A stretch of DNA of 58,932 bases from contig CAZDCI010000002.1 of the NCBI GenBank assembly GCA_964503975.1, positions 1-58,932 of the forward strand. Direction: 5' to 3'. The number at the start of each line of letters is the position of its first letter. Position 1 is the first letter of the stretch. The notes beneath the pieces are model-generated. The model made no database searches and was not told the origin of the DNA. It saw nothing but the letters and a program-made list of their open reading frames with translations. The stretch comes from Candidatus Woesearchaeota archaeon (GTDB taxonomy: Archaea; Nanobdellota; Nanobdellia; Pacearchaeales; GW2011-AR1). A program made the position numbers and the translations under genes. Below, one piece after another: positions 12,901-26,825 of the stretch.

Positions 12901-14326
12901 TTGTAGTTTCTCCAGTTCCTCCTGAAACAGTAAATCCTTGCAATGTTACATCATCAGCCAAAACACAGATTCCACTTAAAGGGGAACATCCGGATGCTCC
13001 ATCAACAGAACTTACATCAATTATTACATTATCTTTACTTTTCCCTATAATGGAAATATTTGTTTTTGAAGAATCAATTAATAAATCCTCTGTGTAAGTT
13101 CCTTCAGCAATACTAATTTCATCGTTTATATTTGCATAATCAATTGCATCCTGTATTGAATCAAAAATTGTAAATTCCACAGGTGTTGAGAATGCTTCAT
13201 TTCCTGCATCATCCTTTGCATAACCACAAACCCATGAATGAGTATTTATTATTACAGAATCTTCTATATTGTAATCACTTGGGGTTTCAGAACAAGATGA
13301 GGGTTCTGTTGTGTGAATTTCATATCCTTTCTCACTACAACCACTTATATCGTCTGTACAACTTATTGTTGCACTTGTTCCTGTTTTATCGACAATTAAA
13401 CCTGTGAGTGAACTTGTTACATCTACATTTGGAACTGTTGCATCTATCTTAATATTAGCAGTTTTATGAGCTTCTTCATTTCCCGCATTATCAACAGACC
13501 AATATTCTAAAATGTGTTCTCCATCAGTTGAAATTGTAATTGTGGCAGAGTATGTCTGTGTTGCCCCACCATTTATTTTATAATAAATTGTATTACATCC
13601 TGAACCACCTATATCAGAACAAGTTAATGTTACATCAACAGAACTTGTTTGCCATCCAGTTGGAGCATTGTCTGTTGTTTCTGGATCAATTGTATCAACA
13701 GTTGTAGAAGCTTCAGCATCTTCAGATTTAATTTCAACATTTCCTGCTAAATCAGTTGCGATTGTATAAAATTCATATTTCCCTTCGCTATCAGCAGCAA
13801 ATTCAATAGGAGAATTTGTAAATGTTCCATAAGATGTCCAAGAAGAACCCTCATCTTTACTATAATATAATTCAACTGAATCAGGATTTGCATCTGTTAT
13901 TGTAAAAGGAATATCAAATGTTGCAGTATTTTGATAATCATCTAAGGAATCAGCAAAGGAAGTTGGGAGGATATTATCAATAGTAAAAAAACCAGAAACA
14001 GCATCTGCGAAAGTATTTGGTTCATAAACATAGATCCTATATTCTTCTCCATTTTTTGCATCTGTATCCCAATTTTTTGAAGTCTCTCCTTCAGGAACCT
14101 GACCTAAAAAAGTCCAGCCAGTTCCATCATTAAATTCTATTCTTACAGGCCCATCAGGAGTTCCGACAAAAGACCATTCTATATTAATTGTTCCACTGTA
14201 GTAATTTCCTTCAACAGGATTAATCAGATTGATATCAGACGCAGCACTCACCATCCCAAAAACACCAACGAGAATTAGCACTGAAAACGCAAAGAGAATT
14301 AAACTTTTTTTCGAATCCATATGCAA
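9914..14326 (-). CDS. Giant secreted surface protein with right-handed parallel beta-helix (PbH1/NosD-like) repeats and Ig-like domains
   Basis: 1470-aa ORF with a signal peptide. Repeated motifs include NNIIKNINIGG, ILDNIIDKFGKGGIVVYY and NNVHDNAYGF, typical of beta-helix repeats. First gene of a four-gene minus-strand operon. Confidence 0.85.
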   Translation of the reverse strand: MHMDSKKSLILFAFSVLILVGVFGMVSAASDINLINPVEGNYYSGTINIEWSFVGTPDGPVRIEFNDGTGWTFLGQVPEGETSKNWDTDAKNGEEYRIYVYEPNTFADAVSGFFTIDNILPTSFADSLDDYQNTATFDIPFTITDANPDSVELYYSKDEGSSWTSYGTFTNSPIEFAADSEGKYEFYTIATDLAGNVEIKSEDAEASTTVDTIDPETTDNAPTGWQTSSVDVTLTCSDIGGSGCNTIYYKINGGATQTYSATITISTDGEHILEYWSVDNAGNEEAHKTANIKIDATVPNVDVTSSLTGLIVDKTGTSATISCTDDISGCSEKGYEIHTTEPSSCSETPSDYNIEDSVIINTHSWVCGYAKDDAGNEAFSTPVEFTIFDSIQDAIDYANINDEISIAEGTYTEDLLIDSSKTNISIIGKSKDNVIIDVSSVDGASGCSPLSGICVLADDVTLQGFTVSGGTGETTITRAIKLSGVSGVTVSNVKIEGIVNTEGYSKGQGFDIINSNGITLSNLEVIDNGGAGFFVKNTQNIAFSEITTNNNLWGGIALATDGDYSDPITTGITFSGTNSFGELALGGVGIYLEIENGGSTINYSNDGSSVDVDLRNSGLEFALHGIQDDDPTERVLFFDTLDNAKTAGQIVSYGHLTGEGRYIEEVSTNNYYVEDGMSVQAAIDNASVGATINVAAGGYDGFKIEGKDNLEIVGEEGAIISGNPVIHTVDTNDYQVFVDVVDSTAITIGGLTIDANSISGTYFRAIYYSNSDGIIQNNIIKNINIGGQKSSGIWIDNGGDIEILDNIIDKFGKGGIVVYYATSVQIEGNTITTIDHSIAPNGIQIGYLLGSGYPPAIGITGTISDNKISGCSWEGYDGKGYDNADTGSGILIMDTTADLDISYNEVHANDVGIDIEAGSLTTIQDNNVHDNAYGFVSWNEYPSINYNTIKNNNEYGIFRTTMGTGTGTLNATDNWWGTTSVTDSMFEGDVDYTPWAYDADVNLDHDSPTSTVISPAEGSWHSTPSLEVSITDEDTDGAGLQKCRWRVRSLNGDDWSVTKNKGDRDCSQPLNLLVGSDSSNYCETEGENACKIEVWAIDNSGNDNSINDGDSGMVERTFSIDFTDPTGSISVNSGDAYTESDSVTLTLDSDDNLDDNLECRFSNDASTWSPWESCTATKTWTLISGDGSKTVSLEIRDDAGNVAQFSDDITLDTQLPQITGLSDFSVAIDDSISVTATITDEGSGVDSSTATLHYSVNEAAEETNSSPIIDGDSYKFTIPASTSKGTVTYYITAEDNAGNEERDPESGSYTITVNDLIWNLDSTWNLVSVPKELVDDSAPENEMWYYDPTETDPENKWKNPTTIEPSVGYWVNSSPESQFGIDYAGDCTGPLCLPSGKINIDALENSWNLIGLTSTEAMNVSSAFSSDIFPNENLPVFYVINYNETTDSFNSMSANSTMIPGEGYWVYVDK

Positions 14327-14440
14327 TCAAACAAGTAAGTGTTATTTAAATATTTTTGTCTTGCAAAATATTCCTTGTAAGGATTGTTTTCGAGTAGTTA
14401 CTTTATGTGATTACTTTTGTTTGATGAAACTTTTGAAATT

Positions 14441-14656
14441 TCATTTCTTCTTTTTGTCTGAGTTATCTTCTCTGATAAAATAAAGTGTTCCTTTCACTGG
14501 GTTGGAGACCCACCAAACCAAAAAGATAGCTATAATAATTAACAGGATCTTTTCAACATATAAGGACAAGACAATTAATACGCTAATTCCAATTAGAATT
14601 CTTACAATTATTTCCATCACCAACCAAAAAATTTGGTGTTTTGCTTCTTTTCTCAT
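14441..14656 (-). CDS. Small membrane protein (two TM helices)
   Basis: 71-aa hydrophobic ORF that overlaps the upstream AbrB-like gene by 4 nt. Confidence 0.5.
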   Translation of the reverse strand: MRKEAKHQIFWLVMEIIVRILIGISVLIVLSLYVEKILLIIIAIFLVWWVSNPVKGTLYFIREDNSDKKKK

Positions 14657-14835
14657 CTTTCTCTCCGCAACTTCATCTCACCTTTCTTAGCCTCAACTTT
14701 TAATTTATCACCAGCCTTGAAACCTGATTTTTTGAGTTCTTTCTCGGGCAAGACTATTCTGTATTTATAGTATTGCTTATTTTTATATTTTCTTGACTTG
14801 ACTTTCTCTATCTTCATAAAGCTATACATTACCAC
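14653..14835 (-). CDS. AbrB/SpoVT-like small DNA-binding protein (antitoxin-like)
   Basis: YRIVLPEKELKKSGFKAGDKLKVEAKKGEMKL matches the swapped-hairpin AbrB/MazE pattern. The true start may be an internal Met. Confidence 0.5.
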   Translation of the reverse strand: MVMYSFMKIEKVKSRKYKNKQYYKYRIVLPEKELKKSGFKAGDKLKVEAKKGEMKLRRER

Positions 14836-15359
14836 TAATTTATAAATATTTAGGGGACGAAAGGTTTATATAGTTTAGGGGGCTAAATACCATATGGCTT
14901 TTTGTTACCATGAGGAAGCGTTTGTATTGGGCGCATTTAGTATGTATATAATAGTCGTTGTATATGAGTTTTTTTGGGATGTGGTTGAAAAATGGATAAA
15001 AGAATGGAATTTATTTTCATAATATTTTTATAGAAGATAGATATTTTTATTGTTATGGTAAAAAACAAAAGAACAAAAAGAAATTTTGTGGATAGAGGAG
15101 AGCACGGATATAATATACTGAAGAGGGTTTGTTTTAGCCATTCAGATATATATTATATTTGAAGGAATTTCGATTATAAGAAATTATCTTGTTAACAGGA
15201 ATTTTGATTCTTGGCAATTAGGTATCTGGCTTGTTATTCTTATCTTATGGTGGATTGGAGAAATGATGACAGACAAAATATATCTAAAAAAGCCCAAAAG
15301 AGAATAAAAATATAATTTTTTTCAGAAAACCATAAAAATATCAGATTTCTTTATCAATC

Positions 15360-16601
15360 ATGACAAATTGTTCTTATTGTGGAGAACATATCAAAGATTT
15401 ATCTTTTGGATGTAGATATTGTAATGGAAGATATTGTGATAAACATAGATTACCTGAAGACCATAATTGTCCCGGATTGAAAAAACATAAGGAAAAGAAT
15501 AAAGATAAATGGGAAAAGGCAGTTAAAGGGAAAAGAAAGAAACACAAAACATACAGAAAAAAACATTCTAATCATAAAGATAAAAAACTTATTAAGAATA
15601 AAATATCTAGGTGGTTAAATAGAAGAGAGCATAGAAGATACAATTTTGATAGGAGATTAAACTACATTTTAGGAATGATCATACCTTTAGCAATTGCAAT
15701 AGTTGCTTATGCTATTTTCTATTCAAATGCTGAAAGGCTTAACGAAATTAATTTCTGGATTTTTAAGCTAGGAGGAATCTTGATTCTTGTTTCTGTGTTT
15801 TTCATCATAAAATATGGAATAAGATTAATTAAAGAAGCAACCAATTTCTTAAAAAGGCAAAGGAATTGGTTGAAATACCTCATAATTATTTTAGTAATTT
15901 TACTTCTTTGGCAAGGATATGTTCATAAAAGCACAGCGTTAAATCCTGTTTTTGATTTTTATGAAGAAACTAACTTTAGTTTGTATTCTCCAATTAGTTT
16001 AGGAAATTTTAGTTTTGAAAGTAATTCTGAAGATTCTGATGACCAATCTAATCCAAGCATAAGCAACGATAATTCTTTTCTTTCAAGTGTTAGTAAATTT
16101 TTCAAATCTGAACCAGAACGCAAAGAAGAGTGCATGATTACTTTTGATGAATTAAATTTAGTAAGAAAAAAATATGATGGGCCACAAATAAATTGGGATG
16201 ATAGGGCCTACAATCTTGCAATTTCAAGAGCTAAAGATATGTATGAAAGAAATTATTTTGATCATGTTACACCAGAAGGAAAATGCGCAGATGATTTTAA
16301 GAAAGATTATGGTTTTAGAAATTCTGAATTTCTAGCAGAGAATGTTGGAGGGATGAGTTATTATAGTAAGGGAGATGTGGCAGGCGATTGTGACGAGGCC
16401 TTAGAGGGATGGTTAAATAGTAGGGGACACAGGTATAATCTACTCTATACGACACATAAATCTGGTGCTATAGGTTGTTATTATGAAATTTGTGTTTTCT
16501 TTGGAGTTAATAATGATGGTTTTGGAGCAAAACCATGTACAACAGGCGAAGAGGGTCTGGCGTTTTGGGAGAACATACCAAAGCAACCAGGAGAAGTGTA
16601 A
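15360..16601 (+). CDS. AN1-type zinc finger - TM segments - CAP/SCP/PR-1-like domain fusion protein
   Basis: N-terminus CSYCGEHIKDLSFGCRYCNGRYCDKHRLPEDHNCPG is AN1 zinc-finger-like. It is followed by 3-4 TM helices. C-terminus (YNLAISRAKDMYERNYFDHVTPEG ... WLNSRGHRYNLL) is CAP/YkwD-like. Confidence 0.7.
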   Translation: MTNCSYCGEHIKDLSFGCRYCNGRYCDKHRLPEDHNCPGLKKHKEKNKDKWEKAVKGKRKKHKTYRKKHSNHKDKKLIKNKISRWLNRREHRRYNFDRRLNYILGMIIPLAIAIVAYAIFYSNAERLNEINFWIFKLGGILILVSVFFIIKYGIRLIKEATNFLKRQRNWLKYLIIILVILLLWQGYVHKSTALNPVFDFYEETNFSLYSPISLGNFSFESNSEDSDDQSNPSISNDNSFLSSVSKFFKSEPERKEECMITFDELNLVRKKYDGPQINWDDRAYNLAISRAKDMYERNYFDHVTPEGKCADDFKKDYGFRNSEFLAENVGGMSYYSKGDVAGDCDEALEGWLNSRGHRYNLLYTTHKSGAIGCYYEICVFFGVNNDGFGAKPCTTGEEGLAFWENIPKQPGEV

Positions 16602-16816
16602 AAATAAACGCTTTATTTAAAAAGATAAAAAAACATATTAGAAAATGTTAAATAAAGATATGCAAAATATTTTGTCCATTTTGACAATTATTTTGGTAAT
16701 CTATTTGTTATCTAGGATTCTTGTTTAGATAACAGAGGTGTATTTCCTACCTAAAAAGAAAAGGAAAATTAAGGGTTCCGGGGTAATACTCATTGAACAA
16801 TCCAGGCCCTTCAACC

Positions 16817-16855
16817 TCAAAACCCAACCAACTTCTGCTTTCCGGTTTTCAACAC
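16817..16855 (-). repeat. hisS 3'-end-derived direct repeat, copy F (most distal)
   Basis: Minus strand reads VLKTGKQKLVGF-stop, against the hisS tail ASGKEKLVGL-stop. Core is CCCAACCAACTTCTGCTTTCC. Confidence 0.7.
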
Positions 16856-16894
16856 AAAGAAAATCTTTAAGTATTTATTTTTGCTTGGAAATAA

Positions 16895-17692
16895 ATGAAG
16901 GCTGAGCAAAAAGAAAAGAGATTAAGGGAATTTGCCGAATCTGTCTTGAAATATCCTGAAAGTAGAGAAGAGATAAGACAGGTTTTATCTGTGTTAAATC
17001 TCAGCGAGGAAGAGGTAATAGAGGCATACATTAATTACGATATGGATGTTTTTTCATACGAAAATGAGATTTATGAACCTTTGAAGATGAGGGCTGTATT
17101 GTATATGCATTATCTTTTGAAAGGAAGCTGGCACCAAGACAGGCAGAATTCCATTCTTAAGCTGGTGAAAAAAATAAGTCCTGACTCTATTGTTGATATG
17201 GGATTCGGGGCTCCTACAAAATATATTAAAAAATATATTTTCAAAAACAAAACTAAGCTTGTTCTTGTGGACTTATATGAATCTGCATTTAAATTTAGTG
17301 AATCTTTGTTTGAACTTTGGGAGCCTTCATGGAGAGAATTTATTTCTTTCAGGAAATTAAATATGAATACTCATGAATACCCTGGAGATTTTGAGTGTTA
17401 TATCTTTCAGGATTCAATAGAACATGTTAAAGAAGCTGGAAGATACCTGACTAAGGTTGTTGATTTGTCTCCGAAAAATGCAAAGTTTATCCTTTCTTTG
17501 CCGATTGGACCTTTAGTTCCTGCCCATACAATTTCATGGAACACTAAAGAAGAAGCAGTAGAATGGTTGAATAAGTGCGGATTGAAAGTTTTAGAGTTAG
17601 ATAAAGTGTACATAAATCCAAAAGTTGATTTGTTTGCAGAAAAATTAAACAGGGAGTTTTATAACCTAATTGTCCTTTGTTCAAAGTTATAA
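16895..17692 (+). CDS. Putative class I SAM-dependent methyltransferase
   Basis: Motif I-like IVDMGFGAPT, acidic beta-2 end LVLVDLYES and motif-II-like YIFQDSIEHV. The assignment is tentative. Confidence 0.5.
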   Translation: MKAEQKEKRLREFAESVLKYPESREEIRQVLSVLNLSEEEVIEAYINYDMDVFSYENEIYEPLKMRAVLYMHYLLKGSWHQDRQNSILKLVKKISPDSIVDMGFGAPTKYIKKYIFKNKTKLVLVDLYESAFKFSESLFELWEPSWREFISFRKLNMNTHEYPGDFECYIFQDSIEHVKEAGRYLTKVVDLSPKNAKFILSLPIGPLVPAHTISWNTKEEAVEWLNKCGLKVLELDKVYINPKVDLFAEKLNREFYNLIVLCSKL

Positions 17693-17705
17693 TCCTCCTA
17701 AACCC

Positions 17706-17732
17706 CTACCCCAACCAACTTTTCCTCCCCGG
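17706..17732 (-). repeat. hisS 3'-end-derived direct repeat, copy G (frameshifted)
   Basis: Minus strand reads CCGGGGAGGAAAAGTTGGTTGGGGTAG, against hisS TCAGGGAAGGAGAAGTTGGTTGGGCTTTGA. Confidence 0.6.
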
Positions 17733-17749
17733 AATCTGTCTAAAAAACC

Positions 17750-18292
17750 TCACACCAAGATTTTCAACAAGTCGGATTTTGCAATTAAGCCGACAGCTTT
17801 TCCTTTCTCTGAAACTAAGACAACAGGAAAATGTTTAAGAAGAGACGTTATGACCAATATGTTTGTATCTTTTGATATCAAAGGAGGACTTTTAGTCATT
17901 AAATCTTCAACTTTTAAACCCTCAACGCTTTCTAACTTTTTTCCCAGTATATCTGATTCCGTTACCAAACCAATTACTTTCTCTTTTTCTATAACAGGCA
18001 ATTGAGAAATAGCGTATTTGTTCATTAAACTTACCACCTTTTTCATATTATCTTTTGGCTTAACAGAAATAATCTTTTTTATCATAATATCTTTAGCTTC
18101 TTTTTCTTTATGTTTAGTTAGGGAATTTATAGCATCTTCTATTTTCTTTACATACGAATAAGTTGGATCAAGTTTTCCGGATTCTATTTTTGCCACCATT
18201 GACTGACTTATTCCTATTTCTTTCGCAAGCTGATGTTGTGTCAAATCCAACTGTTTCCTAATCTTTCTCAGTTGTGCGACGTCAAAAATCAT
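17750..18292 (-). CDS. Transcriptional regulator, XRE-type HTH plus CBS domain pair
   Basis: The HTH_3 signature LTQHQLAKEIGISQSMVAKIESGK is followed by two CBS-like repeats. Confidence 0.8.
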   Translation of the reverse strand: MIFDVAQLRKIRKQLDLTQHQLAKEIGISQSMVAKIESGKLDPTYSYVKKIEDAINSLTKHKEKEAKDIMIKKIISVKPKDNMKKVVSLMNKYAISQLPVIEKEKVIGLVTESDILGKKLESVEGLKVEDLMTKSPPLISKDTNILVITSLLKHFPVVLVSEKGKAVGLIAKSDLLKILV

Positions 18293-18449
18293 AATTTAAT
18301 CAAAGATACGGGATTTATAAATATTCCTATAAGAATATTTTTGTCAGAAGATTATTTAAAGGGAAGCAGGGGTTTAAGAGAGATGACAGAAGACAAATTA
18401 GCCGAAAAGCAAGAAATCAGCTATTGTATACAGCAAACTAAACAATAAA

Positions 18450-18836
18450 ATGGCAAAAGAAAGAATCCCAAGACGTGATTTTTTAGCGTCTGTTTTAAGT
18501 GTAGGATTAAGTGGAACTGTATTAAGACGCAGTGCTTTAGAAGGTAAAGCCCTTGAAGAAGCAGAGTCAAAAGAGACAGAGGCACCAACCCAAGAATATC
18601 AGTGGAGACCCCACCTTCATTCTTATCTTGAAGAGGAGCTTCGCAGATTGAAATTTCAGAGCAGAGAAGACCTTGGATTAGCAATAGATCTTCTTTGGAA
18701 TGACAAAAGGCTAAGAGGGGTCCCATGGGACAGTCCCAATCATAAGGACATTGTCTTACCCAAAGAAGCAATTGAATATCTGGATGCAGAAGGGGTTAAA
18801 TTTAGAGTATATAAAAAATTAGGGAGGAAATATTAA
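18450..18836 (+). CDS. Hypothetical exported protein with twin-arginine-like signal peptide
   Basis: N-terminus is MAKERIPRRDFLASVLSVGLSGTVL (RRxFL plus an h-region). Confidence 0.55.
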   Translation: MAKERIPRRDFLASVLSVGLSGTVLRRSALEGKALEEAESKETEAPTQEYQWRPHLHSYLEEELRRLKFQSREDLGLAIDLLWNDKRLRGVPWDSPNHKDIVLPKEAIEYLDAEGVKFRVYKKLGRKY

Positions 18837-18849
18837 AACTAATAATAGA

Positions 18850-19572
18850 ATGACAACAGAAGAAGTTTCTTTTGAAGAAATACTTGGTTTAGCAGAGAGA
18901 GTTGAAGGAATTAAACTTTACAAGGTATCTCAAGAAAGGAAAAGTATATTTAAAGGTGATAAAGAAATTAAGGCCGTTTTAGATGGTGGTGATTCCCTGT
19001 ATCATTGGTTTGAAGATTTCTTTTATTATTTATATGAAGTTTCCAAGGAAGTTTTTTTTGACGGAGACAGGCATCCTTATTGGATAGCTTCTTTTGATGA
19101 GGAGTCTTTCAGACTGTATGATGGCTTGTTCTTAGGACGTTTTGGATGTGGCGGCTGGGGAAGATATTTATATGCTATGGGCAAGGCAAAGGAAAGTTTG
19201 TTTAATTCAGGAGAACATGATGATGTATTTATCCGGTATGAAGAATTTTATGAAAGATTCGAAAAGTGTTTGTCTCAAAGAGACAGGTTTGTTGCAGATA
19301 GAATCAGAGAACAGTTTGGAATTGAACCAAAAAATGGTTTGATTTTAGATGGCGAAGATTTAGTAAAATACTCTTCCTATGAAGAAGAGGGAGAAAACAA
19401 AGAGAATTTAATTTTTTGGCAGTGGTTCAGGGACCATTTTATTGACGAAGCAGAGTATGAGAAAAAAATGGAATTCATCACAAAAATTAATCACAGGGAA
19501 GCTTTTGATAGACACATTGAAGGTAAAATCAGAAGATTAGAGGATATTGGTTTTAGGAGGGCTTCAAATTAA
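18850..19572 (+). CDS. Hypothetical protein
   Basis: 240-aa ORF with no recognised motif. Confidence 0.5.
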   Translation: MTTEEVSFEEILGLAERVEGIKLYKVSQERKSIFKGDKEIKAVLDGGDSLYHWFEDFFYYLYEVSKEVFFDGDRHPYWIASFDEESFRLYDGLFLGRFGCGGWGRYLYAMGKAKESLFNSGEHDDVFIRYEEFYERFEKCLSQRDRFVADRIREQFGIEPKNGLILDGEDLVKYSSYEEEGENKENLIFWQWFRDHFIDEAEYEKKMEFITKINHREAFDRHIEGKIRRLEDIGFRRASN

Positions 19573-19593
19573 ATTGTTTTTTATTGATAAAAA

Positions 19594-20055
19594 ATGGTAA
19601 AAAGTTTTGCTAAATTGATAGTAGAAATTAGAGAACAGTATGGGTATAGCCAAAGAGACCTAGCTGAGGAGATTGGTACCGCGCGCAGTACAGTCTCAGG
19701 ATGGGAGATTGATGAAAAAAATCCATCACGTACGTATGTAAAAAAACTGGCACAACACTTTCCCGACTATGAAGAAAGATTGTATATGGCTGCTAGGCTG
19801 TTGCCCCTCAATCCTAAAGAAATTGATGATATAAAATTAGAATTCGGCAATCTGTTGCAAGAAATTCGGACACAACGTAACTATCGGCAATCCGATTTAG
19901 CAGAAAGAATCGGCGCCAACAAAGGGACTGTGTGTGAGTGGGAGACCGGCAAGCGACTTCCATTCCGAACCCGCATAGAGGATTTAGCTGCTGCCTTTCC
20001 AAAGCACAAAGAGAGAATTTATCACGCTGCTAGAATGCTCCCGCAAGGCGAGTAG
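19594..20055 (+). CDS. Tandem double XRE-family HTH protein
   Basis: Two HTH_3 repeats (YSQRDLAEEIGTARSTVSGWEIDEKNPS and YRQSDLAERIGANKGTVCEWETGKRLP). Visibly higher GC than the surroundings. The TAG stop is followed by 65 open in-frame codons. Confidence 0.75.
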   Translation: MVKSFAKLIVEIREQYGYSQRDLAEEIGTARSTVSGWEIDEKNPSRTYVKKLAQHFPDYEERLYMAARLLPLNPKEIDDIKLEFGNLLQEIRTQRNYRQSDLAERIGANKGTVCEWETGKRLPFRTRIEDLAAAFPKHKERIYHAARMLPQGE

Positions 20056-20268
20056 ATTCCCCATACACACCTTGTGACCTTTTTGGACGACGAAGAAGGC
20101 TATGAAGCGCTAGATGCTATGGGAGCTTACGGGCCAATTCGGTGCTTTGTTTATGATGATGAGGAAGTTTTTAAGATTTCACGTGAGCAGTATAGGGTGC
20201 TGAAGATGCTTGGCGTTTCCTGGCGTGAGATTGATATAGAAAGTAAAAATTGACCACTAAAAATTCTT

Positions 20269-20604
20269 TTATTTCAAGACCTTCGAGAATTTAAAACAGC
20301 CATGACCATCGAAAAACTCCGGAATGTGTTTTTCCTCTTTCCATCCTTTCTTAATGTAAAACTCCGTCGCGTTGTTAATATCTAAAGTGTAACACCAAAT
20401 TGTTTTACAGCCCTTTCTCTTGGATAACTCTTCTGCGAAATGTAGTAATTTTGAGCCGTAACCCTTTCTTTTGGGATTAACTGCTATCGCAACCAGTTCA
20501 CATTTATCATTAGTAAACTCAAGTTCTATGGCCCCTGTATTCTCTAGTATATAATATTCTTTTTTCCACGTCTGATGTTTTTCAGTATTTTGCCGGCTGA
20601 CCAT
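20269..20604 (-). CDS. Small GNAT-family acetyltransferase
   Basis: Acetyl-CoA motif A-like NPKRKGYGSKLLHFAEELSKRKG. At 111 aa it is short for the family. Confidence 0.6.
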   Translation of the reverse strand: MVSRQNTEKHQTWKKEYYILENTGAIELEFTNDKCELVAIAVNPKRKGYGSKLLHFAEELSKRKGCKTIWCYTLDINNATEFYIKKGWKEEKHIPEFFDGHGCFKFSKVLK

Positions 20605-20726
20605 CTTAACTTGGACCTGTACAAAACACCGAATATTTTTTCCAAAAGCAAACAGTCCTGCTCGTTGGCTTTTCGGATTTCCATTGAGAAATAAAAATTA
20701 AGTGATTATAAAAAAGTTACTTCACA

Positions 20727-21143
20727 TCACCCTTTCTCTTTATCATCAACCCCTCCTGCGAGAGGATTTGCATGACCTACTTTTTTCATAGCTTCAGGAG
20801 GCATTCTTTTTTCATACTCGTTTAAGGTTTCTTCCAGACCTTTTTCCGCATCTGTTTTTGTCTGGTTTGCTATCTTTAACAACAAGAACATTGTATCGCC
20901 TAAAAAATCCTGAACCTTATCCCTGTTTTCTTCAATAACTTTTTTCTGTTTTTCATCTCCAATCCACTTAACAAGACTCCAAAGCTCTCCGGTTTCTTCC
21001 GTTATGTTTAACATCAAATCTTTTAAATCCCAGCTATCATCCCATCCGCGAGCTTCGTCAAAATTCTTAATCAAATCCTGGGCGTCTTTTATATTCATAG
21101 AAAAAACATGTTTAAACAACTTATATTGTTTTCTGTTGTTCAC
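20727..21143 (-). CDS. MazG-like nucleotide pyrophosphohydrolase
   Basis: EETGELWSLVKW and LGDTMFLLLKIANQ helices carrying the EExxE/D pattern. The start may be the internal Met at 21098. Confidence 0.65.
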   Translation of the reverse strand: MNNRKQYKLFKHVFSMNIKDAQDLIKNFDEARGWDDSWDLKDLMLNITEETGELWSLVKWIGDEKQKKVIEENRDKVQDFLGDTMFLLLKIANQTKTDAEKGLEETLNEYEKRMPPEAMKKVGHANPLAGGVDDKEKG

Positions 21144-21185
21144 TATAATCCCAACAATATTTAAATAATCTTTTAAAGTAAAAGT

Positions 21186-21647
21186 GTGATGGAAAGAATC
21201 CAGATATCAACACATTATGAGTATCTTATAGAAGTAGGATTTTCTGAGTATGAGGATTCGGATTTGCCTGTTGGAAAGCGTCCGAAATTTAAAATAAGAC
21301 TTTCGGCAGAAAACCATAACGATGCGGTAGAGAAAGCTGAAAGTGCATATCCTAGCCCAAGGTACAGTGTTGTTAGTGTAAGGTCTGTGTCCGAAATTCC
21401 TGTCTTCACAACTTTGCTGACGCCAGAAGAAGTCAGTGAGGTAGCAAGGCTTTATCATCAGATCAAGAAAGCAGAGTTTGATTTGAAACGAGCAGATTAT
21501 GAAGGACCTAACGGCATAGTTGCTCAAAAGCAAGCCGTGCGCAGGCTGGCCGATGAATTAATTCCAAGATATAAAGAAAAAATCCCAAAAGAAATTCAAG
21601 ATAAGTTAGGTTTGGACATAGGAAAACTTGAAGAAAAATGTCGCTGA
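21186..21647 (+). CDS. Hypothetical protein
   Basis: 153-aa ORF, divergent from the MazG-like gene. Confidence 0.45.
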   Translation: MMERIQISTHYEYLIEVGFSEYEDSDLPVGKRPKFKIRLSAENHNDAVEKAESAYPSPRYSVVSVRSVSEIPVFTTLLTPEEVSEVARLYHQIKKAEFDLKRADYEGPNGIVAQKQAVRRLADELIPRYKEKIPKEIQDKLGLDIGKLEEKCR

Positions 21648-21692
21648 AGGAAGTATTTAAAATTCCTGCGAGATTTTTTTGAAATTAATAAT

Positions 21693-21716
21693 TCAACCCC
21701 AAACCAACTTCTCCCC
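21693..21716 (-). repeat. hisS 3'-end-derived direct repeat, copy E (short)
   Basis: Minus strand reads GEKLVWG-stop. Plus-strand core is CCCAAACCAACTTCTCC. Confidence 0.5.
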
Positions 21717-21740
21717 CTATTTTTCTCCCTCATACTCTGC

Positions 21741-21777
21741 ACGTCTACATCCCAACATTTATAAATATTGTAGACGT
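21741..21777 (+). promoter_or_regulatory. Perfect 9-bp inverted repeat ACGTCTACA-N19-TGTAGACGT bracketing a TATA box (TTTATAAATA); probable autoregulatory operator of the MNT-HEPN pair
   Basis: Arms lie at 21741-21749 and 21769-21777, with the TATA box at 21758-21767, about 25 nt before the ATG at 21787. Confidence 0.6.
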
Positions 21778-21786
21778 ACATATCTT

Positions 21787-22248
21787 ATGGCGTATACTGA
21801 GGTAAAAGAGAGAAACGGCAGGAAGTATTATTACAGAGTAAGGTCTATCAGAAAAGGTAAAAAGGTTTCCAAAGAAAGAATATATCTTGGAAAAAATCTT
21901 TCAAAATCAGAGCTTGAGAAAAAGGAGAAAGAAGCAGATGCTTCTTTGAATAAAAACAAAAGAAGCAAGGAGTTTGAAAAGTTAAAGGAGAAAATCGTAA
22001 AAATTCTCAAAAGCTACGGCATTAAAAAAGCAGGAATTTTTGGAAGTTATGTGAGGGGAGAGCAGGGAAAAGACAGCGACATAGATATCCTGATTCAGCC
22101 AAAAAAAAACATGAGTTTATTAGATATATCAGAGTTGAAGATTGAGATAGAGGAAGCTATCGGGAAAAAAGCAGATCTTGTGGAATATTCTGTAATTAAA
22201 CCATTGGTAAAAAATCGCATTTTAAATGAAGAGGTAAAAATAATATGA
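21787..22248 (+). CDS. Minimal nucleotidyltransferase (MNT, antitoxin-type) with a ~60-aa N-terminal extension
   Basis: GIFGSYVRGEQGKDSDIDILI is the G-S...DxD NTase motif. The upstream part of the ORF-track ORF covers promoter and repeat sequence. There is a 4-nt ATGA overlap with the HEPN gene. Confidence 0.8.
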   Translation: MAYTEVKERNGRKYYYRVRSIRKGKKVSKERIYLGKNLSKSELEKKEKEADASLNKNKRSKEFEKLKEKIVKILKSYGIKKAGIFGSYVRGEQGKDSDIDILIQPKKNMSLLDISELKIEIEEAIGKKADLVEYSVIKPLVKNRILNEEVKII

Positions 22249-22592
22249 AAAGAGACGTTAGTTTATTTATAAACGATATTTTGGAAAACATAGAAGACAT
22301 AGAATCCTTTTCTAAAGGACTTGATAAAAACAGGTTTAAATCAAATAAATTAGAGCAAAACGCCATTACGAGAAGCCTGGAAATCATAGGAGAAGCAACA
22401 AAAAATATTCCGCAGTCTCTTAAAAGCAAATATCCAAACGTTTCCTGGAAAGGAATAGCAGGATTTAGAGACATTCTAAGCCACGCTTATTTTGGGGTAA
22501 ATGCTGACAGGATTTGGAAAGTAGTTAAAGAAGACCTGCCTGTTTTAAAAAAACAAATGCAAAAGATAAAGAAAGATTTAGAATCTAACTAA
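22245..22592 (+). CDS. HEPN-domain (DUF86) toxin-type protein
   Basis: R-x4-H motif in GFRDILSHAYFGV. Size and gene order are typical of MNT-HEPN modules. Confidence 0.8.
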   Translation: MKRDVSLFINDILENIEDIESFSKGLDKNRFKSNKLEQNAITRSLEIIGEATKNIPQSLKSKYPNVSWKGIAGFRDILSHAYFGVNADRIWKVVKEDLPVLKKQMQKIKKDLESN

Positions 22593-22613
22593 CTTTTCCT
22601 TCCCGGTTTTCAT
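22578..22613 (-). repeat. hisS 3'-end-derived direct repeat, copy D
   Basis: Minus strand reads MKTGKEKLVRF-stop and overlaps the last codons of the HEPN gene on the other strand. Confidence 0.7.
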
Positions 22614-22694
22614 ATAATATCTAGAATAAATCTAATTTCTTTTAAGTGGTGACATAAGAGAAATGTTTATAAAAAGGATTTTTCTTAAATTTTC

Positions 22695-23327
22695 ATGAAA
22701 GTGAGATTGGATTTGCCACATATATACGAATGTTTAGAAGAGCCAGGAACAGTTAGCCCTCAAAACCAATTTTATTTGGAGGCAATAGAACAAATAAAAG
22801 CAGGAGAAGAATGGAAAGATAAAAAAGAGATACCTGTTTCTCCCAAAGAGATTGCAAGGACAATTCATTTAGGGAAAGCAATTTTACCAACTCCTTTTGA
22901 AAGCGTGGACGGTCATTTTAAAAGAGATGAAGGGGCATACGCGGGAAAAGTCAGGATTAGCATTCCAACATATAATGTTGATCCGGTTAAAACTAATGAA
23001 ACGTTAGAAATAGTGTATACAGGATTAAGAGATTTTTTTGGTAACGATTGGGTGCAAATGAACCCTACTTCAGGATATTTGATAGTAAGAGGCAAACCTA
23101 AAATAGCTGTTCAACCATCAAATCCATTTATATCTGTAAGTATTGGTGATTCTGGTATCCAGGAGGCCAAGTTTGGTGCTTACGAGACTTTTTCTAAAGA
23201 TGGTATGCTTTTGGAAAGTGTTGTTGATATTTGTGTAAATTCCGGAATTGAAGGAGCTGTATTAAGAGGAGATATGGATTCAAATCCAAATTTAGAAATA
23301 AGTTTGAGGCCAGTAAAATCTCTCTAA
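22695..23327 (+). CDS. Hypothetical protein
   Basis: 210-aa ORF with a TATA-like GTTTATAAAAAGG about 25 nt upstream. Forms a single-gene module between repeat copies D and C. Confidence 0.55.
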   Translation: MKVRLDLPHIYECLEEPGTVSPQNQFYLEAIEQIKAGEEWKDKKEIPVSPKEIARTIHLGKAILPTPFESVDGHFKRDEGAYAGKVRISIPTYNVDPVKTNETLEIVYTGLRDFFGNDWVQMNPTSGYLIVRGKPKIAVQPSNPFISVSIGDSGIQEAKFGAYETFSKDGMLLESVVDICVNSGIEGAVLRGDMDSNPNLEISLRPVKSL

Positions 23328-23431
23328 ATCTTCACCAACTTTTCCTTCCCTGTTTTCATATCCTTAACCTTAACCTTTCCTTGTTTTAAGAGGTTCACTT
23401 CTTTGTCGTCGATGAAAACCACTTTGATGTA
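23324..23431 (-). pseudogene. Remnant of a second, diverged hisS 3' end (35 codons plus stop), copy C
   Basis: Minus strand reads YIKVVFIDDKEVNLLKQGKVKVKDMKTGKEKLVKI-stop. The hisS tail reads YKKVIFLGDKEVNLLKQGKVKMKDMASGKEKLVGL-stop. Confidence 0.85.
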
Positions 23432-23438
23432 ACATTTA

Positions 23439-23470
23439 CCCCTTACATTATAAAAAGTATTTGTAAAGGG
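23439..23470 (+). promoter_or_regulatory. Imperfect inverted repeat CCCCTTACA-N14-TGTAAAGGG around TATA-like TTATAAAAA, upstream of the Fic gene
   Basis: Arms match at 8 of 9 positions. A second TATA-like CTTTATAAAG lies about 25 nt before the ATG at 23505. Confidence 0.4.
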
Positions 23471-23504
23471 TAAGCTTTATAAAGCACCTATTCCTAGATA
23501 TTTT

Positions 23505-24506
23505 ATGGTTTATATTTATAAGAAAACAATTGGAAAAAAACCCTATTATTATCTAAGGGCATCAGTTAGAAAAGGAGATAAAATAGTTGTAAAAGATCTG
23601 GCTTATCTTGGAAGCAATCTTAACGAGGTAAAAAAGAATATTGAAAATTCTAAAAAATATAAAAAAGAAATAAGGAAAACTTATCACACAATCAAATCTT
23701 TTCTTGATTCCAATTACTATCTGGAGAAAGTGGCTAAATTAAAGTTGAAAAAAGATAAATTTTTAGATAAAAAACTTCTGGAAGTAGAAGCCTGCAAAGA
23801 GCATTTCACAAAAAAATTTGGCAGGGAGCACGAGTTAACAAAAAAAGATTTATTCAAATATTTTTTAATTGGGTTTGCCTATAATACTACTTCTATTGAA
23901 GGAAATACAATTACTTTGAAAGAAGCTAAAAGTTTGCTTGAAGAAGGTTTAACTCCAAAAAACAGGACTTTAAGGGAAATTCATGATTTGAAAAATACAG
24001 AAAGTGTCTTCTATAAAATTTTAAGTTCAAAAAAAGAAATTGACAAAAATTTTATTATAGATATTCATAAAAAATTGATGAAAAATATTGATAATAGAAT
24101 AGGTTTTAGAAACTCAGATGTAAGAGTTTTAAGGGTTAAGTTCAAGGCAAGTTCAGCAAAGTATGTTGTAACAGATATAAATCTTCTTTTAGAGTGGTAT
24201 AGCAAAAATAAAAGTAAATTTCATCCTTTGGTTTTGGCAGCCCTGTTTCACCACAAGTTTGAAAAAATCCATCCTTTTTACGATGGAAATGGAAGGACTG
24301 GCAGAATGTTACTAAATTACATTCTTATAAAGAATAATTATCCTCCTTTAATAATCAGAAAAAAATTCAGAAAACAATATCTTGACGCTTTAGAAAAAGC
24401 AGATAATAGTCTTATTAGGGAAGCAAAAACAGAGAACTACTTTAGTTTAGTCCAGTATGTGGCTTCTGAGTTAATTAATAATTATTGGAATATTTTTTTG
24501 GTGTAA
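23505..24506 (+). CDS. Fic/DOC-family protein (AMPylase-type)
   Basis: Canonical Fic motif HPFYDGNGRTGR. The N-terminal ~40 aa resemble the N-terminal extension of the MNT protein. Confidence 0.9.
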   Translation: MVYIYKKTIGKKPYYYLRASVRKGDKIVVKDLAYLGSNLNEVKKNIENSKKYKKEIRKTYHTIKSFLDSNYYLEKVAKLKLKKDKFLDKKLLEVEACKEHFTKKFGREHELTKKDLFKYFLIGFAYNTTSIEGNTITLKEAKSLLEEGLTPKNRTLREIHDLKNTESVFYKILSSKKEIDKNFIIDIHKKLMKNIDNRIGFRNSDVRVLRVKFKASSAKYVVTDINLLLEWYSKNKSKFHPLVLAALFHHKFEKIHPFYDGNGRTGRMLLNYILIKNNYPPLIIRKKFRKQYLDALEKADNSLIREAKTENYFSLVQYVASELINNYWNIFLV

Positions 24507-24509
24507 ATT

Positions 24510-24564
24510 TCACAAAGCAATACTCTTATCCTTCCCTGAAGCCATATCTTTCACCTTAACCTTT
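24510..24564 (-). pseudogene. Remnant hisS 3' end (17 codons plus stop), copy B
   Basis: Minus strand reads KVKVKDMASGKDKSIAL-stop. A 37-nt stretch differs from the hisS tail at one position. Confidence 0.85.
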
Positions 24565-24795
24565 CAGACCAGAAAAATTTATCTCAAATGGAAGGCTAAA
24601 CTCTATTTCATCCAAATTTTTTGCCTTTTTCCTAAAGTTTAATATACCTATTCCAATAACCTCGTCAGTATCTTCATCTTTGAAAACCGTTATTCCCGGA
24701 GCAATTTCTTCCCCATAATTTGGTACACCTTTTCTTACAAATATCTCCAGGAAATCCCCTTCTTCATCATAGTATATTTTCATTTGCCCATTCAT
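24556..24795 (-). CDS. DUF2283-family small protein (antitoxin-like)
   Basis: YYDEEGDFLEIF ... VIGIGILNF matches the DUF2283 pattern. 4-nt overlap with the upstream gene. Confidence 0.65.
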   Translation of the reverse strand: MNGQMKIYYDEEGDFLEIFVRKGVPNYGEEIAPGITVFKDEDTDEVIGIGILNFRKKAKNLDEIEFSLPFEINFSGLKG

Positions 24796-25085
24796 TTTAT
24801 GTTCCTAGCATAGTGCACTGACATTACAAAACCATCTCCATTTAAATACTTAACGATGACTTTAAGGTATTTTGATTTTTGTTTTTTATGCTTGAAATAT
24901 TTATAGAAATTATTAACATCTTCTCTTTCATCAAAGGTAATCTTATCTGATTTTTTAAGGGTTTCATGAATTTCATCAGGAGTTTCAACATTAGGATGAT
25001 AGGCCTTAATATGTCTCCACTGCTTCTTTGTAAGCCTTATTTTCCTTTTGGTTTTATCTGTAACCTCAAAAATAATATCCTCCAT
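24792..25085 (-). CDS. Hypothetical small basic protein, toxin-like partner of DUF2283
   Basis: 97 aa, with KQWRHIKAYHPNV and KYLKVIVKYLNGDGFVMSVHYARNIK. The operon layout matches the DUF4258-DUF2283 pair at 30240-30658. Confidence 0.5.
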   Translation of the reverse strand: MEDIIFEVTDKTKRKIRLTKKQWRHIKAYHPNVETPDEIHETLKKSDKITFDEREDVNNFYKYFKHKKQKSKYLKVIVKYLNGDGFVMSVHYARNIK

Positions 25086-25139
25086 TGACTAATCAAAAAA
25101 ACACGCTATAAAAAATTATCTTAAATTTCAATATAGCAA

Positions 25140-26291
25140 TCAAAGCCCAACCAACTTCTCCTTCCCTGAAGCCATATCTTTCATCTTAACCTTTCCCTGC
25201 TTCAAAAGGTTCACTTCTTTATCTCCAAGAAAGATGACTTTTTTGTAGCTATACGAGTTAGCATATTCAAGAGCCTTGCTTGGTTTTCCGTAATAAATAC
25301 TTACAACTTCTCCGCGCTTTCTAAGTTTTTCAGCAAGTTTTATTGCCTTGCGGTCTTGCCCTATTGAAATTATTAGAGTTTTGTCTTTCTCAGCTTCCAA
25401 TTGAGAAACTTCAGCCAAACGCTCCAATCCAAAACTTATTCCAGTACATTGCTTACCATTAAACTCGTAGCTCCCACCGGCAATAACTGTCTCTTTTATT
25501 CCGCGAGCTTTCACCTCAAAAACGCTTCCATTGTAATAACTTAGGCCGCGAGCAATTGTCGGGCTGAACTCAACCCTAAAACCGTATTGCTTGCAATAAT
25601 CCATTAAACTGATTATTCTTTTATAGCTTGAAAATTGTTTGAAGAATTTTTCTCCTTTTTTTATATCATCTAAAAACTTTTCAGCATCATATTTTTTCAA
25701 AATTGATTTAAGTTTTTTCTCGCCAATTTTATCATACTTGTCAATTTCCCTAAGAACTTGGGCCCTCTTTTTTTTGTCAACTTTTTCAAACTCAAGAATC
25801 TCATCAAGCAATACTCTATTGTTAACCAAAATAACAGGCTTTATTCCCATTTCTTTAAACGCCTGATTCGTCAGTGCAAGAATCTCTGCCTCGTCTCTTG
25901 CAGGCGCGTCATCACTTATTCCAATAATGTCAGCATCTGCCTGGGTGAACTGCCTTAATCTGTTTTTAGATACGGGCTCATCTCTAAAAATCTGTCCTAT
26001 TTGATAACGTTTCCATGGAAGCTTTTGATTTTTCATCAAACGTTTAAGCTGAAAGGTAAATTCATATCTCAAGGCTAGTTTGCGTTTACCCCTGTCTTTA
26101 AGCTTAAATATATCCGAGACAGCCTCATCATCTGCGTTGTCACCTTGGACAAACTTTTCCTGCTCAATCACAGGAGTTTGCACAGGCTCAAACCCGTAAG
26201 CTTCAAAAGTTTCTTTTAAAATTTGCCTAATTCTCTCTATCTTTTCTGCATCTTTTCCTATGAAGTCGCGAAAGCCTTTAACTGTTTTCAT
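25140..26291 (-). CDS. hisS: Histidyl-tRNA synthetase
   Basis: Class II motif 2 (FRDEPVSKNRLRQFTQADADIIG), motif 3 (GISFGLERL) and a C-terminal anticodon-binding domain. Confidence 0.9.
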   Translation of the reverse strand: MKTVKGFRDFIGKDAEKIERIRQILKETFEAYGFEPVQTPVIEQEKFVQGDNADDEAVSDIFKLKDRGKRKLALRYEFTFQLKRLMKNQKLPWKRYQIGQIFRDEPVSKNRLRQFTQADADIIGISDDAPARDEAEILALTNQAFKEMGIKPVILVNNRVLLDEILEFEKVDKKKRAQVLREIDKYDKIGEKKLKSILKKYDAEKFLDDIKKGEKFFKQFSSYKRIISLMDYCKQYGFRVEFSPTIARGLSYYNGSVFEVKARGIKETVIAGGSYEFNGKQCTGISFGLERLAEVSQLEAEKDKTLIISIGQDRKAIKLAEKLRKRGEVVSIYYGKPSKALEYANSYSYKKVIFLGDKEVNLLKQGKVKMKDMASGKEKLVGL

Positions 26292-26728: not shown

Positions 26729-26753
26729 TTTTCAAAAAACTTCCTTTCAAAAG

Positions 26754-26825
26754 GGTGGAAGGGGAGAATCGAACTCCCGTTTTACGGACCACAACCGCAC
26801 GTTCTGCCACTGAACTACAACCACC
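26754..26825 (-). tRNA. tRNA-His (anticodon GTG) with genomically encoded G-1
   Basis: Manual cloverleaf: D stem GTTC/GAAC, anticodon loop TTGTGGT, T arm GGGAG-TTCGATT-CTCCC, G-1 opposite C73. Acceptor pairs 5:68 and 6:67 are U-U mismatches. Confidence 0.7.

Follow-up and report, generated by a model that had tools for sequence, protein, structure and literature searches.

The islands related to ICESt1 and ICESt3 are reportedly documented by Pavlovic (2004) and Bellanger (2011). They occupy the 3' end of fda in Streptococcus thermophilus and contain cis-mobilizable elements (CIMEs) stacked by site-specific tandem accretion (PMC5704250). CIMEs carry no integrase or transfer genes and are bounded by attL and attR copies of a protein-gene 3' end; newcomers enter whichever att site includes the end of the gene, so that tandem arrays build up next to an intact target gene. 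An array of this appearance was found downstream of hisS, the histidyl-tRNA synthetase gene, in a 58,932-nt stretch of DNA from a Candidatus Woesearchaeota archaeon (contig CAZDCI010000002.1, assembly GCA_964503975.1; hereafter the window). The hisS gene is intact (383 aa) and is followed by six remnants consisting of its tail only, which delimit six gene modules, and no transfer or recombinase domain was detected in any module protein with Pfam or NCBIfam. CIMEs are bacterial and linked to conjugation, measure kilobases to tens of kilobases, derive from recognisable integrative and conjugative or integrative and mobilizable elements, and have their cognate integrase in a tandem partner. In contrast, the hisS array is archaeal, its six units of 0.65-3.9 kb each consist of a promoter and a gene or operon, and neither a partner element nor an integrase is present within 59 kb.

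Other described systems resemble the array in part. Of 68 thaumarchaeal elements whose integration sites are defined, 14 occupy the 3'-distal region of a protein-coding gene, and elements with a tyrosine recombinase build arrays by inserting repeatedly at a single site (PMC6563490). Tandem integration and integrase loss have also been noted for archaea generally (PMC8371274). Like the hisS array, these archaeal elements have direct repeats of a 3' end and bring a stop codon that replaces that of the target; their sites are empty in some relatives and occupied in others, and both tandem integrations and 'cryptic' elements without an integrase are reported. They are, however, far larger than the hisS modules and mostly encode an integrase. 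Among the listed targets that were consulted hisS does not appear, and arrays of six one-gene modules are not described in the two papers. In Prochlorococcus, tycheposons inserted one after another have left partial tRNAs in genomic islands (bioRxiv 10.1101/2020.12.28.424599). As in the hisS array, serial integration at one site displaces the older elements, partial target copies lie between elements, and the cargo serves defence or adaptation. However, tycheposons target tRNA genes and include active elements with a tyrosine recombinase, and integrase fragments are seen, whereas the hisS array has no integrase or fragment of one and a protein-gene target, tRNA tails being found in related arrays. 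Archaeal integrons and attC clusters lacking IntI also exist (PMC9668308). Integrons and clusters of attC sites lacking an integrase (CALINs) share with the array stacked small cassettes, often toxin-antitoxin genes, each with a terminal recombination site; integrase-less arrays are common among them and their cassettes can be moved in trans. The hisS array differs in having no IntI, unstructured gene-end copies instead of folded attC palindromes, own promoters where cassettes are mostly promoterless, and one reversed module. The locus works like the CIMEs, the thaumarchaeal and other archaeal elements and the tycheposon islands, and the features of CIMEs and of accretion that could be tested were found in it. 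The array is best read as tandem accretion of a CIME-like kind and not as an integron.

The target gene, the copies of its tail and the modules between them are given below from hisS outwards, followed by the gene on the far side.

25140 to 26291, minus strand: hisS, histidyl-tRNA synthetase, 383 aa (Pfam tRNA-synt_His, 1.3e-34), the target gene of the array.
25140 to 25247, minus strand: live hisS tail, attL-like, the final 108 nt including the stop codon, with the core GGGAAGGAGAAGTTGGTTGGG; reference for all copies.
24566 to 25139, minus strand: module 1, a 97-aa orphan (24792-25085) and DUF2283 (24556-24795; Pfam DUF2283, 1.8e-06).
24510 to 24565, minus strand: remnant 1, matching the live tail over 41 nt (95% identity) before a diverged end ...GKDKSIAL-stop.
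23432 to 24509, plus strand: module 2, Fic (23505-24506; Pfam Fic, 2.3e-22; PADLOC PDC-S04/SoFic).
23324 to 23431, minus strand: remnant 2, the longest copy, 35 codons and a stop (YIKVVFIDDKEVNLLKQGKVKVKDMKTGKEKLVKI-stop), 73-77% identical over 98-108 nt.
22616 to 23323, plus strand: module 3, a 210-aa ORFan (22695-23327) with its own TATA box; its stop codon overlaps remnant 2.
22578 to 22615, minus strand: remnant 3 (MKTGKEKLVRF-stop), 29.9 bits in the weight matrix.
21717 to 22577, plus strand: module 4, MNT (21787-22248; Pfam Polbeta, 8.1e-17) and HepT/HEPN (22245-22592; Pfam HepT-like, 2.3e-31).
21693 to 21716, minus strand: remnant 4 (GEKLVWG-stop), the shortest and weakest copy, with the exact 13-mer GGAGAAGTTGGTT in common with the live tail.
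17742 to 21692, both strands: block 5, 3.9 kb, with genes at 17750-21647 (Pfam, NCBIfam).
17704 to 17741, minus strand: remnant 5, core intact (36.3 bits), ending altered, the frame continuing for three codons.
16856 to 17703, plus strand: module 6, a 265-aa protein (16895-17692) without a Pfam or NCBIfam match.
16817 to 16855, minus strand: remnant 6, the outermost copy (VLKTGKQKLVGF-stop), ending in GTTGGGTTTTGAGG.
5205 to 5930, plus strand: dph, diphthamide synthase gene (Pfam Diphthami_syn_2, 1.1e-70), the far side of the empty site.

The hisS gene is complete up to its stop codon. It aligned over its full length with 29 homologues, with invariant residues as far as E378, and its C-terminus reads ...DKEVNLLKQGKVKMKDMASGKEKLVGL. 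Its 3' end was found again six times in one orientation, every copy lying downstream of hisS within an array of 8.4 kb. Each remnant corresponds to the last 24-108 nt of the gene and is anchored at the stop-codon end; beyond the stop codon the copies have no sequence in common. Whatever else they retain, all seven copies keep the same 21-nt core, and remnants 1, 2, 3, 4 and 6 keep both the frame and a stop codon. A repeat finder recovered remnant 1 as a 41-nt match (24525-24565), remnant 2 as a 98-nt match of 77% identity (23334-23431) and short copies of 22-28 nt at 22588-22615, 21693-21714, 17704-17741 and 16817-16854.

The copies far exceed chance expectation. With up to three mismatches allowed, the 20-nt core CCAACCAACTTYTCCTTCCC gave five matches where 0.02 would be expected, and 100 shuffles never produced five. 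All five are plus-strand matches located in 16.8-25.2 kb. The terminal 60 nt of 44 other genes and of two tRNAs in the window, scanned as a control, yielded only scattered single chance matches, and no duplicated dph tail was found in the window; the hisS tail alone has five downstream copies on the same strand. A position-weight scan of both strands of the whole 59 kb detected no hisS-tail copy beyond the seven, including within block 5 and the region 5.9-16.8 kb. By score alone remnant 4 is the weakest copy, its ungapped weight-matrix score (16.5 bits) lying below the shuffle maximum (18.2 bits); it has the orientation of the live tail and sits at a module boundary. Logan contigs from two independent runs (SRR7048218, SRR7048220) are 100% identical to the window over 26872-24773, 21758-23160 and 16888-18342, spans that take in the live tail, remnant 3 and remnant 5, the last junction being in Logan contig L088. 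Mis-assembly is thus unlikely at these three junctions. The array of seven hisS-tail copies is real and well supported.

The extreme ends of some remnants are read by the neighbouring genes. Between 4 and 12 nt at the remnant ends serve as the last codons of HepT and of the 210-aa open reading frame (ORF), the last 12 nt of remnant 3 doubling as the final codons of HepT on the opposite strand. The extreme end of the tail is therefore physically part of the older, distal module, which would place the crossover upstream of it, in the conserved core.

According to its hisS homologues, the host belongs to the Woesearchaeota/Pacearchaeota (Nanoarchaeota, DPANN). Among the related loci (numbered L001 onwards), occupancy of the hisS end varied, while dph and ScpA (3733-4674 in the window) were conserved on the far side. 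In L001 (hisS 70% identical), dph lies 11 nt past the hisS stop codon in converging orientation and ScpA follows; since hisS stands directly beside dph, L001 represents an empty site. L084 (GCA_964530945.1, hisS 72% identical) has two modules, in the order hisS, DUF2283, remnant, Fic, remnant, 130-aa gene, dph and ScpA. The DUF2283 gene of module 1 is present there, and the 97-aa gene is absent. The Fic proteins of L084 and the window are 95% identical, and window 24799-23334 matches L084 1229-2695 with 95.7% DNA identity over 1467 nt, whereas hisS, dph and ScpA show 71-72%. The high identity starts just past the hisS stop codon and fades within remnant 2. The difference between modules (95.7%) and flanks (about 71%) indicates recent horizontal arrival. 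An integrase-less 1.5-kb block has therefore recently entered both lineages, or passed between them, at a site that is the same at the nucleotide level. The two lineages are as distant as different genera.

The modules shared with L084 are those next to hisS, and the four additional modules of the window are distal. This polarity of module order fits growth at the live tail. The outermost remnants of the window and of L084 both end in GTTGGGTTTTGAGG, and remnant 6 is 89.7% identical to L084 2679-2707 over 29 nt. Because of this common ending, remnant 6 probably represents the ancestral end of hisS. A chimeric origin of L084 is unlikely, as its remnant 1 carries a 6-nt patch of L084's own hisS tail.

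The differences among the tails are those of coding sequence. Among the live tail, remnant 2 of the window and remnant 2 of L084, 14-17 of 22-29 differences fall at third codon positions (17 of 29 between remnant 2 and the live tail), and about half of the changed codons are synonymous. Such a pattern is expected if each copy once ended a working hisS, and supports the view that the copies are tails of different, once-working hisS alleles. Their histories are mosaic. The segment of remnant 2 from -108 to -82 is 89% identical between the window and L084 and 59% identical to the live tail of the window, so that this segment travels with the Fic module. The segment from -33 to 0 is only 64% identical between the two remnants, and the L084 version is 94% identical to the window live tail. 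In remnant 1, the flanks are module-like and otherwise conserved between the window and L084, but the 6-nt patch follows the live tail of each genome (GCTTCA, Ala-Ser, or AAAACN, Lys-Thr).

All modules are compact and contain neither surplus non-coding DNA nor debris of pseudogenes. A TATA box (TTTATAAA or similar) is located 21-23 nt upstream of the first ATG in each module, the usual geometry of leaderless archaeal genes. The intergenic space at module ends is below 110 nt, and converging genes stop 0-46 nt short of the next copy, two stop codons overlapping a copy. Module 1 runs in the direction of hisS, opposite to modules 2, 3, 4 and 6, and its promoter TTTTTATA begins just past the hisS stop codon; no family match was obtained for its 97-aa protein. 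The Fic promoter has a TATA box at 23475-23484 and an upstream inverted repeat, TTTACCCCTT (23435-23444) and AAAGGGTAAG (23465-23474). The TATA box of module 4 is likewise bracketed by an inverted repeat, ACGTCTACA (21741-21749) and TGTAGACGT (21769-21777), and its MNT was assigned to PADLOC PDC-S09. The 210-aa protein of module 3 had no homologue among 5.8 billion proteins and no family match. Block 5 encodes HTH_3+CBS, 128-aa, 240-aa orphan, 2xHTH_3, 59-aa, GNAT, MazG and 153-aa orphan proteins; the Tat-signal match of the 128-aa protein is weak, and the GC content of the block (0.376-0.385) exceeds that of the surroundings (about 0.34). The family of the 265-aa protein of module 6 comprises 172 representatives, two of them with sub-threshold Methyltransf_12 matches, and the protein is possibly a divergent S-adenosylmethionine (SAM)-dependent methyltransferase. 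Four proteins of the array are orphans with respect to Pfam, NCBIfam, PHROGs, PDB sequences and the protein search, the comparison with PDB sequences having been made for the 265-, 240- and 210-aa orphans.

An earlier, sequence-only reading of the same stretch had described much of this organization. Its seven same-orientation copies were all recovered in place or within a few bases, they exceeded shuffled sequence except for the score of remnant 4, and its view of them as tails of different hisS alleles agrees with differences that are mostly at third positions and often synonymous. Five of the six remnants keep frame and stop, as it had reported, remnant 5 reaching a stop three codons later. 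The positions of the gene ends relative to the next copy, the TATA-like promoter of each module and the lack of a recombinase were also borne out. Its module contents stood for DUF2283, Fic, MNT and HepT, HTH_3+CBS, 2xHTH_3, GNAT and MazG; the SAM-methyltransferase-like assignment is faint, and the label 'toxin-like' for the 97-aa protein was not upheld by any family match. The description of the modules as 'TA/defence-type' (toxin-antitoxin or defence) is fair for Fic and MNT, since PADLOC placed these two.

Fic (23505-23620) and MNT (21787-21900), although unrelated enzymes, have a common N-terminal domain of about 38 aa with the pattern G.K.YYY.R.S.RKG.K....YLG.N (45% identity, pairwise E 7e-06). 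No significant Pfam match was found for this domain. It could be a DNA-binding autoregulator, with the inverted repeats at the TATA boxes (23435-23484 and 21741-21777) as its operator.

Neither a tyrosine nor a serine recombinase domain was found when the 50 window proteins (59 kb) were scanned against Pfam, and the same scan gave no IntI or Phage_integrase-type match. The array orphans yielded no recombinase in NCBIfam or PHROGs, and the 265-, 240- and 210-aa proteins none among PDB sequences. No recombinase family was present in the Pfam lists of genes called in the related loci. The sites themselves are plain sequences. An attC-like fold is absent from all seven copies (DNA folding z -1.4 to +1.0 against shuffles), and in the nine sites scanned for dyad symmetry the best 11-N(4-8)-11 inverted repeat was no better than in shuffles. 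The hisS, tRNA-Asn-type and tRNA-Asp-type cores showed no significant dyad of the kind formed by dif-like arms, and no conserved structure was seen in the tRNA-Asp-type copies. An Rfam scan of 15-27.5 kb returned only tRNA-His.

Several known kinds of element were considered on these grounds and rejected. A 'suicidal' integrase element of the Sulfolobus spindle-shaped virus (SSV) type would be expected to leave Int(N) and Int(C), neither of which was found: the spaces at the module ends are shorter than 110 nt and no integrase domain was detected. A transposon or casposon with target-site duplication does not agree with copies of 24-108 nt that are 73-95% identical and differ in a coding-like manner, nor with the lack of terminal inverted repeats at the module ends. 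Elements that exploit Xer/dif (integrative mobile elements exploiting Xer, IMEX) require two 11-nt inverted arms around a 6-nt spacer (PMC2958812, PMC8371274), and these arms are not present in the cores. None of these classes, whether SSV-type element, casposon or dif module, describes the locus, nor is it an integron.

The 333-aa Fic protein is widespread in Nanoarchaeota, and its promoter was constant in every context examined, consisting of the inverted repeat TTACCCC...GGGTAAG followed by TTTATAAAG. The Fic unit begins 0-1 nt past a short G-rich motif and, in the window and L084, about 5 nt past the hisS homology. The same unit with the same left boundary was found in at least three other att contexts. 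In L090 and L091 the motif before Fic belongs to a tRNA-Asn(GTT) gene with an intron, of which it forms the 3' end, and it is found again after Fic and after a 144-aa gene (GGGTGGAGGGAT, three exact copies against 0.03 expected). In L089/L100, L094-L099, L101, L102 and L104-L108 the motif is the 14-mer CTCGGCGTGGGCG(T), which corresponds to the T-stem and acceptor 3' strand of tRNA-Asp(GTC), intact in L058 (10420-10493). Fic starts after this tRNA-Asp-3'-like 14-mer in L089, L094-L099, L102 and L104, and on several Nanoarchaeota contigs copies of it in direct orientation separate small modules.

Some of the tRNA-Asp-type copies match in the 14-nt core only, and others add a left arm of up to about 60 nt. 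Over 3.4 kb, L095 matches L097 with 99.6% identity, and outside this stretch the two contigs are unrelated. On the right, similarity breaks off within the 14-nt core, and on the left it does so about 30 nt ahead of another core. This difference amounts to module swapping within a population. As a 14-nt core is too short for ordinary homologous recombination, these copies point to a site-specific enzyme. Among 80 tRNAs in about 970 kb of related loci, only the tRNA-Asn of L090/L091 has a partial copy of its own end downstream, and no intact tRNA-Asp gene adjoining tRNA-Asp-type copies was found in this set. Such arrays are therefore uncommon.

These related loci showed some further features. 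L090 9782-11610, and also L091, contain tRNA-Asn(GTT) with a 76-nt intron, Fic, a partial tRNA, a 144-aa orphan and another partial tRNA; the two tRNA-Asn remnants of L090 have about 40 nt in common (TGAACACTTTTGAACGGyTCwGGGTGGAGGGAT). In L094 a core copy with three mismatches follows the GrpE-DnaK-DnaJ operon. Downstream of Fic in tRNA-Asp-type arrays there is a conserved promoter-like sequence, GTCGACAAGATTTATAAA (L095 3850-4035, L102 8820-9000 and 7480-7740, L104 10945-11100). In L095, L097, L099 and L102 it precedes a short stretch of about 150 nt, an ORF or a transcript, which extends to the next core; L102 has this unit to either side of Fic. A LAGLIDADG gene and an IS200-type Y1 transposase are located near Fic in L105.

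For the hisS array we consider serial site-specific insertion at the hisS end to have about an even chance of being correct, with integrase-less mini-modules that bring a replacement tail and a recombinase that acts in trans. The incoming module would be a small circle with one gene or operon, its own archaeal promoter and an attP-like mimic of the hisS 3' end of 24-108 nt; on the free element this site would be a copy of GGRAAGGARAAGTTKGTTGGG. The mimic would recombine with the chromosomal hisS tail and the module would be inserted, leaving hisS with a hybrid, functional tail and stop codon and shifting the prior tail to the far side of the module. The next event would again take place at the live tail, so that the newest modules would adjoin hisS and the ancestral tail would be outermost. 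The enzyme would most likely be a tyrosine-type integrase, with its gene at another place in the genome or on a plasmid or virus that is present only transiently. Its substrate would be an asymmetric core of about 21 nt, GG(G/A)A(A/G)G.A.AAGTTGGTTGGG, with the crossover probably located within or just upstream of AAGTTGGTTGGG.

The sequence-only reading had offered serial insertion at the hisS end with a replacement tail as the first of two alternatives, and had expected a variable number of cassettes with conserved boundaries across relatives. The number of modules is zero in L001, two in L084 and six in the window, and together with the 95.7% module identity over a background of about 71% and the common ending GTTGGGTTTTGAGG this fits that alternative, which is thereby supported and in essence right; we infer that the enzyme acts in trans. 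Its second alternative, an integron-like platform, does not agree with the lack of IntI, of an attC-like fold and of a dyad, or with own promoters and mixed orientation. The chimeric mis-assembly that it had named as a possible refutation is contradicted at three junctions by the Logan contigs. It had also called such an array undescribed. This does not apply to the kind of locus, since integration at 3' ends, re-use of a site and CIMEs are all established (PMC6563490, PMC8371274, PMC5704250), but it does apply, in the literature searched, to the combination of six 0.65-3.9-kb modules without a recombinase at a protein-gene tail in a DPANN archaeon. In the same literature we found no description of hisS as a target, of a DPANN host, of six promoter-bearing modules without a recombinase in cis, of near-identical modules in genomes with about 71% core identity, or of the same cargo at hisS, tRNA-Asn-type and tRNA-Asp-type sites.

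A wider reading is possible but doubtful, namely that DPANN archaea have a cassette system in which promoter-bearing modules with an unstructured mimic of a gene end are stacked and swapped by a recombinase encoded outside the modules. The gene ends would be those of hisS, tRNA-Asn and tRNA-Asp, and the system would be an analogue of the integron without IntI or attC. Defence and toxin genes, such as that of the 333-aa Fic, would in this way be moved between distant lineages.

The array might also have arisen without a recombinase, by homologous recombination of the Campbell type. RadA would loop out modules between tails, a single crossover would re-insert them and duplicate the tail, and modules would pass between cells as small circles or fragments and enter any hisS tail. 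The failure to find an integrase among the 50 window proteins would then need no further explanation, and the variable homology arms (24-108 nt), the sites without symmetry or fold, the mosaic crossovers with a remnant 1 patch that follows the live tail as gene conversion would give, and the synonymous divergence of the long arms, as if refreshed from a working hisS, all agree with it. We nevertheless regard this as rather unlikely. Several remnants match the live tail over 21-30 nt only, and with mismatches; the tails of the two hosts are about 75-85% identical with short exact runs and make a poor substrate; the same 21-nt core was kept in all seven copies; and tRNA-Asp-tail copies have as little as a 14-nt core, yet the breakpoints between strains lie exactly there. 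It is improbable, too, that ordinary integrase-bearing plasmids or proviruses inserted serially at hisS and decayed to one-gene stubs, the modules now being dead. The standard account of CIMEs and of islands strewn with partial tRNAs is a route of this kind in three steps (PMC5704250; bioRxiv 10.1101/2020.12.28.424599), integrated elements of archaea often lose their integrase (PMC8371274), and block 5, with 3.9 kb, mixed orientation and higher GC, resembles a decayed larger element. However, the DUF2283-Fic block is 95.7% identical in genomes that are about 71% identical at the core, with the same boundaries and no integrase in either, and two independent, identical decays soon after transfer are unlikely. 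The compactness of the modules, which contain no debris and have a promoter 21-23 nt before the ATG, also speaks against decay, and so does the Fic unit, whose left boundary is unchanged in at least three further att settings. A true integron or CALIN, in which IntI would capture cassettes through folded attC sites and the hisS end would be attI, is very improbable: the units are mostly single genes and rich in toxin-antitoxin functions, and integrons and IntI-less attC clusters are known in Archaea including DPANN (PMC9668308), but IntI is missing, the repeats neither fold (z -1.4 to +1.0) nor contain imperfect palindromes, the cassettes have their own promoters and are not all co-oriented, and the sites copy coding sequence. 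The data come from metagenome assemblies, in which repeats can produce chimeras; an artefact of this kind, or chance similarity in AT-rich DNA, has only the slightest probability in view of the five matches against 0.02 expected, the control with 44 other gene tails, the three junctions reproduced at 100% in independent Logan assemblies of two runs, and the hisS-tail patch of its own in L084 remnant 1, which would not be expected of a chimera.

Serial insertion by an enzyme acting in trans has evidence against it as well. No single fixed crossover point accounts for both remnant 1 and remnant 2, so that the junction mosaics require extra exchange or short-tract conversion among copies to be assumed, and the left homology boundaries range from -24 to -108, more variation than a single integrase usually leaves. 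The core lacks dyad symmetry, a requirement of most tyrosine recombinases that have been characterised, although a class of asymmetric 3'-end tRNA targets has been noted (PMC8371274). Viral and plasmid-like contigs scanned for the three core patterns and Fic gave no match, and these scans revealed no free element, either circular or attP-bearing. The hisS array was found in two genomes only. A scan with a C-terminal hidden Markov model and a 24-nt self-tail revealed no remnants in 80 other hisS loci from metagenomes, which are 53-64% identical and extend for more than 5 kb downstream in about 25 cases, indicating that the hisS array is restricted to a small clade.

DPANN archaea have tiny genomes, and their ways of gaining and exchanging genes are poorly understood. 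This locus provides a concrete route, in which the end of one essential gene is the landing pad for one-gene defence or toxin modules shared between lineages about 71% identical in core genes. If the modules move as units by an enzyme in trans, they would constitute a minimal form of cassette exchange on plain, target-mimicking sites, with a short candidate recombination site (about 21-40 nt). The signature of repeated gene or tRNA tails between small modules could then be used for finding the recombinase and further arrays. If they are decayed ordinary elements instead, the locus is still a clean case of archaeal tandem accretion at a protein-gene end.

Other variable or repeated regions were noted around the array. 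Between dph and the outermost remnant, about 11 kb (5947-16800) are missing from L001 and L084. This region encodes a 1470-aa beta-helix/Ig-like surface protein, a 657-aa CARDB-like protein, zf-AN1+CAP and orphans. It is not bounded by copies of the hisS or dph tail and represents a second variable region of a different kind. In L084, a 62-aa gene and a ParE-toxin-like pair adjoin a permease gene (6428-6908). A tRNA-His(GTG) gene (26753-26824) is found a short way upstream of hisS, separated from it by a single small gene, as in L001 (9328-9400), and the tRNA-His region of L085 (286-437) is 93% identical although hisS there is only 76-80% identical; the linkage of tRNA-His with the gene of its synthetase is conserved.

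A free-standing 269-aa LAGLIDADG endonuclease (52665-53474, minus strand) abuts the superoxide dismutase gene (52056-52664), 27 kb from the array and with no evident link to it. A 71-nt intergenic repeat (2094-2164 and 2984-3054, 77% identical) has a conserved centre, CCGAGGGTTTTTAAGCAAAAGTTyAAACCCTAGG, which contains a palindrome; a partial further copy was found at 437-472 / 2141-2176. At the other end of the window, a 300-nt tandem duplication of 99% identity (55755-56054 and 56198-56497) covers two paralogous 117-aa genes on the minus strand (55793-56146 and 56236-56589).

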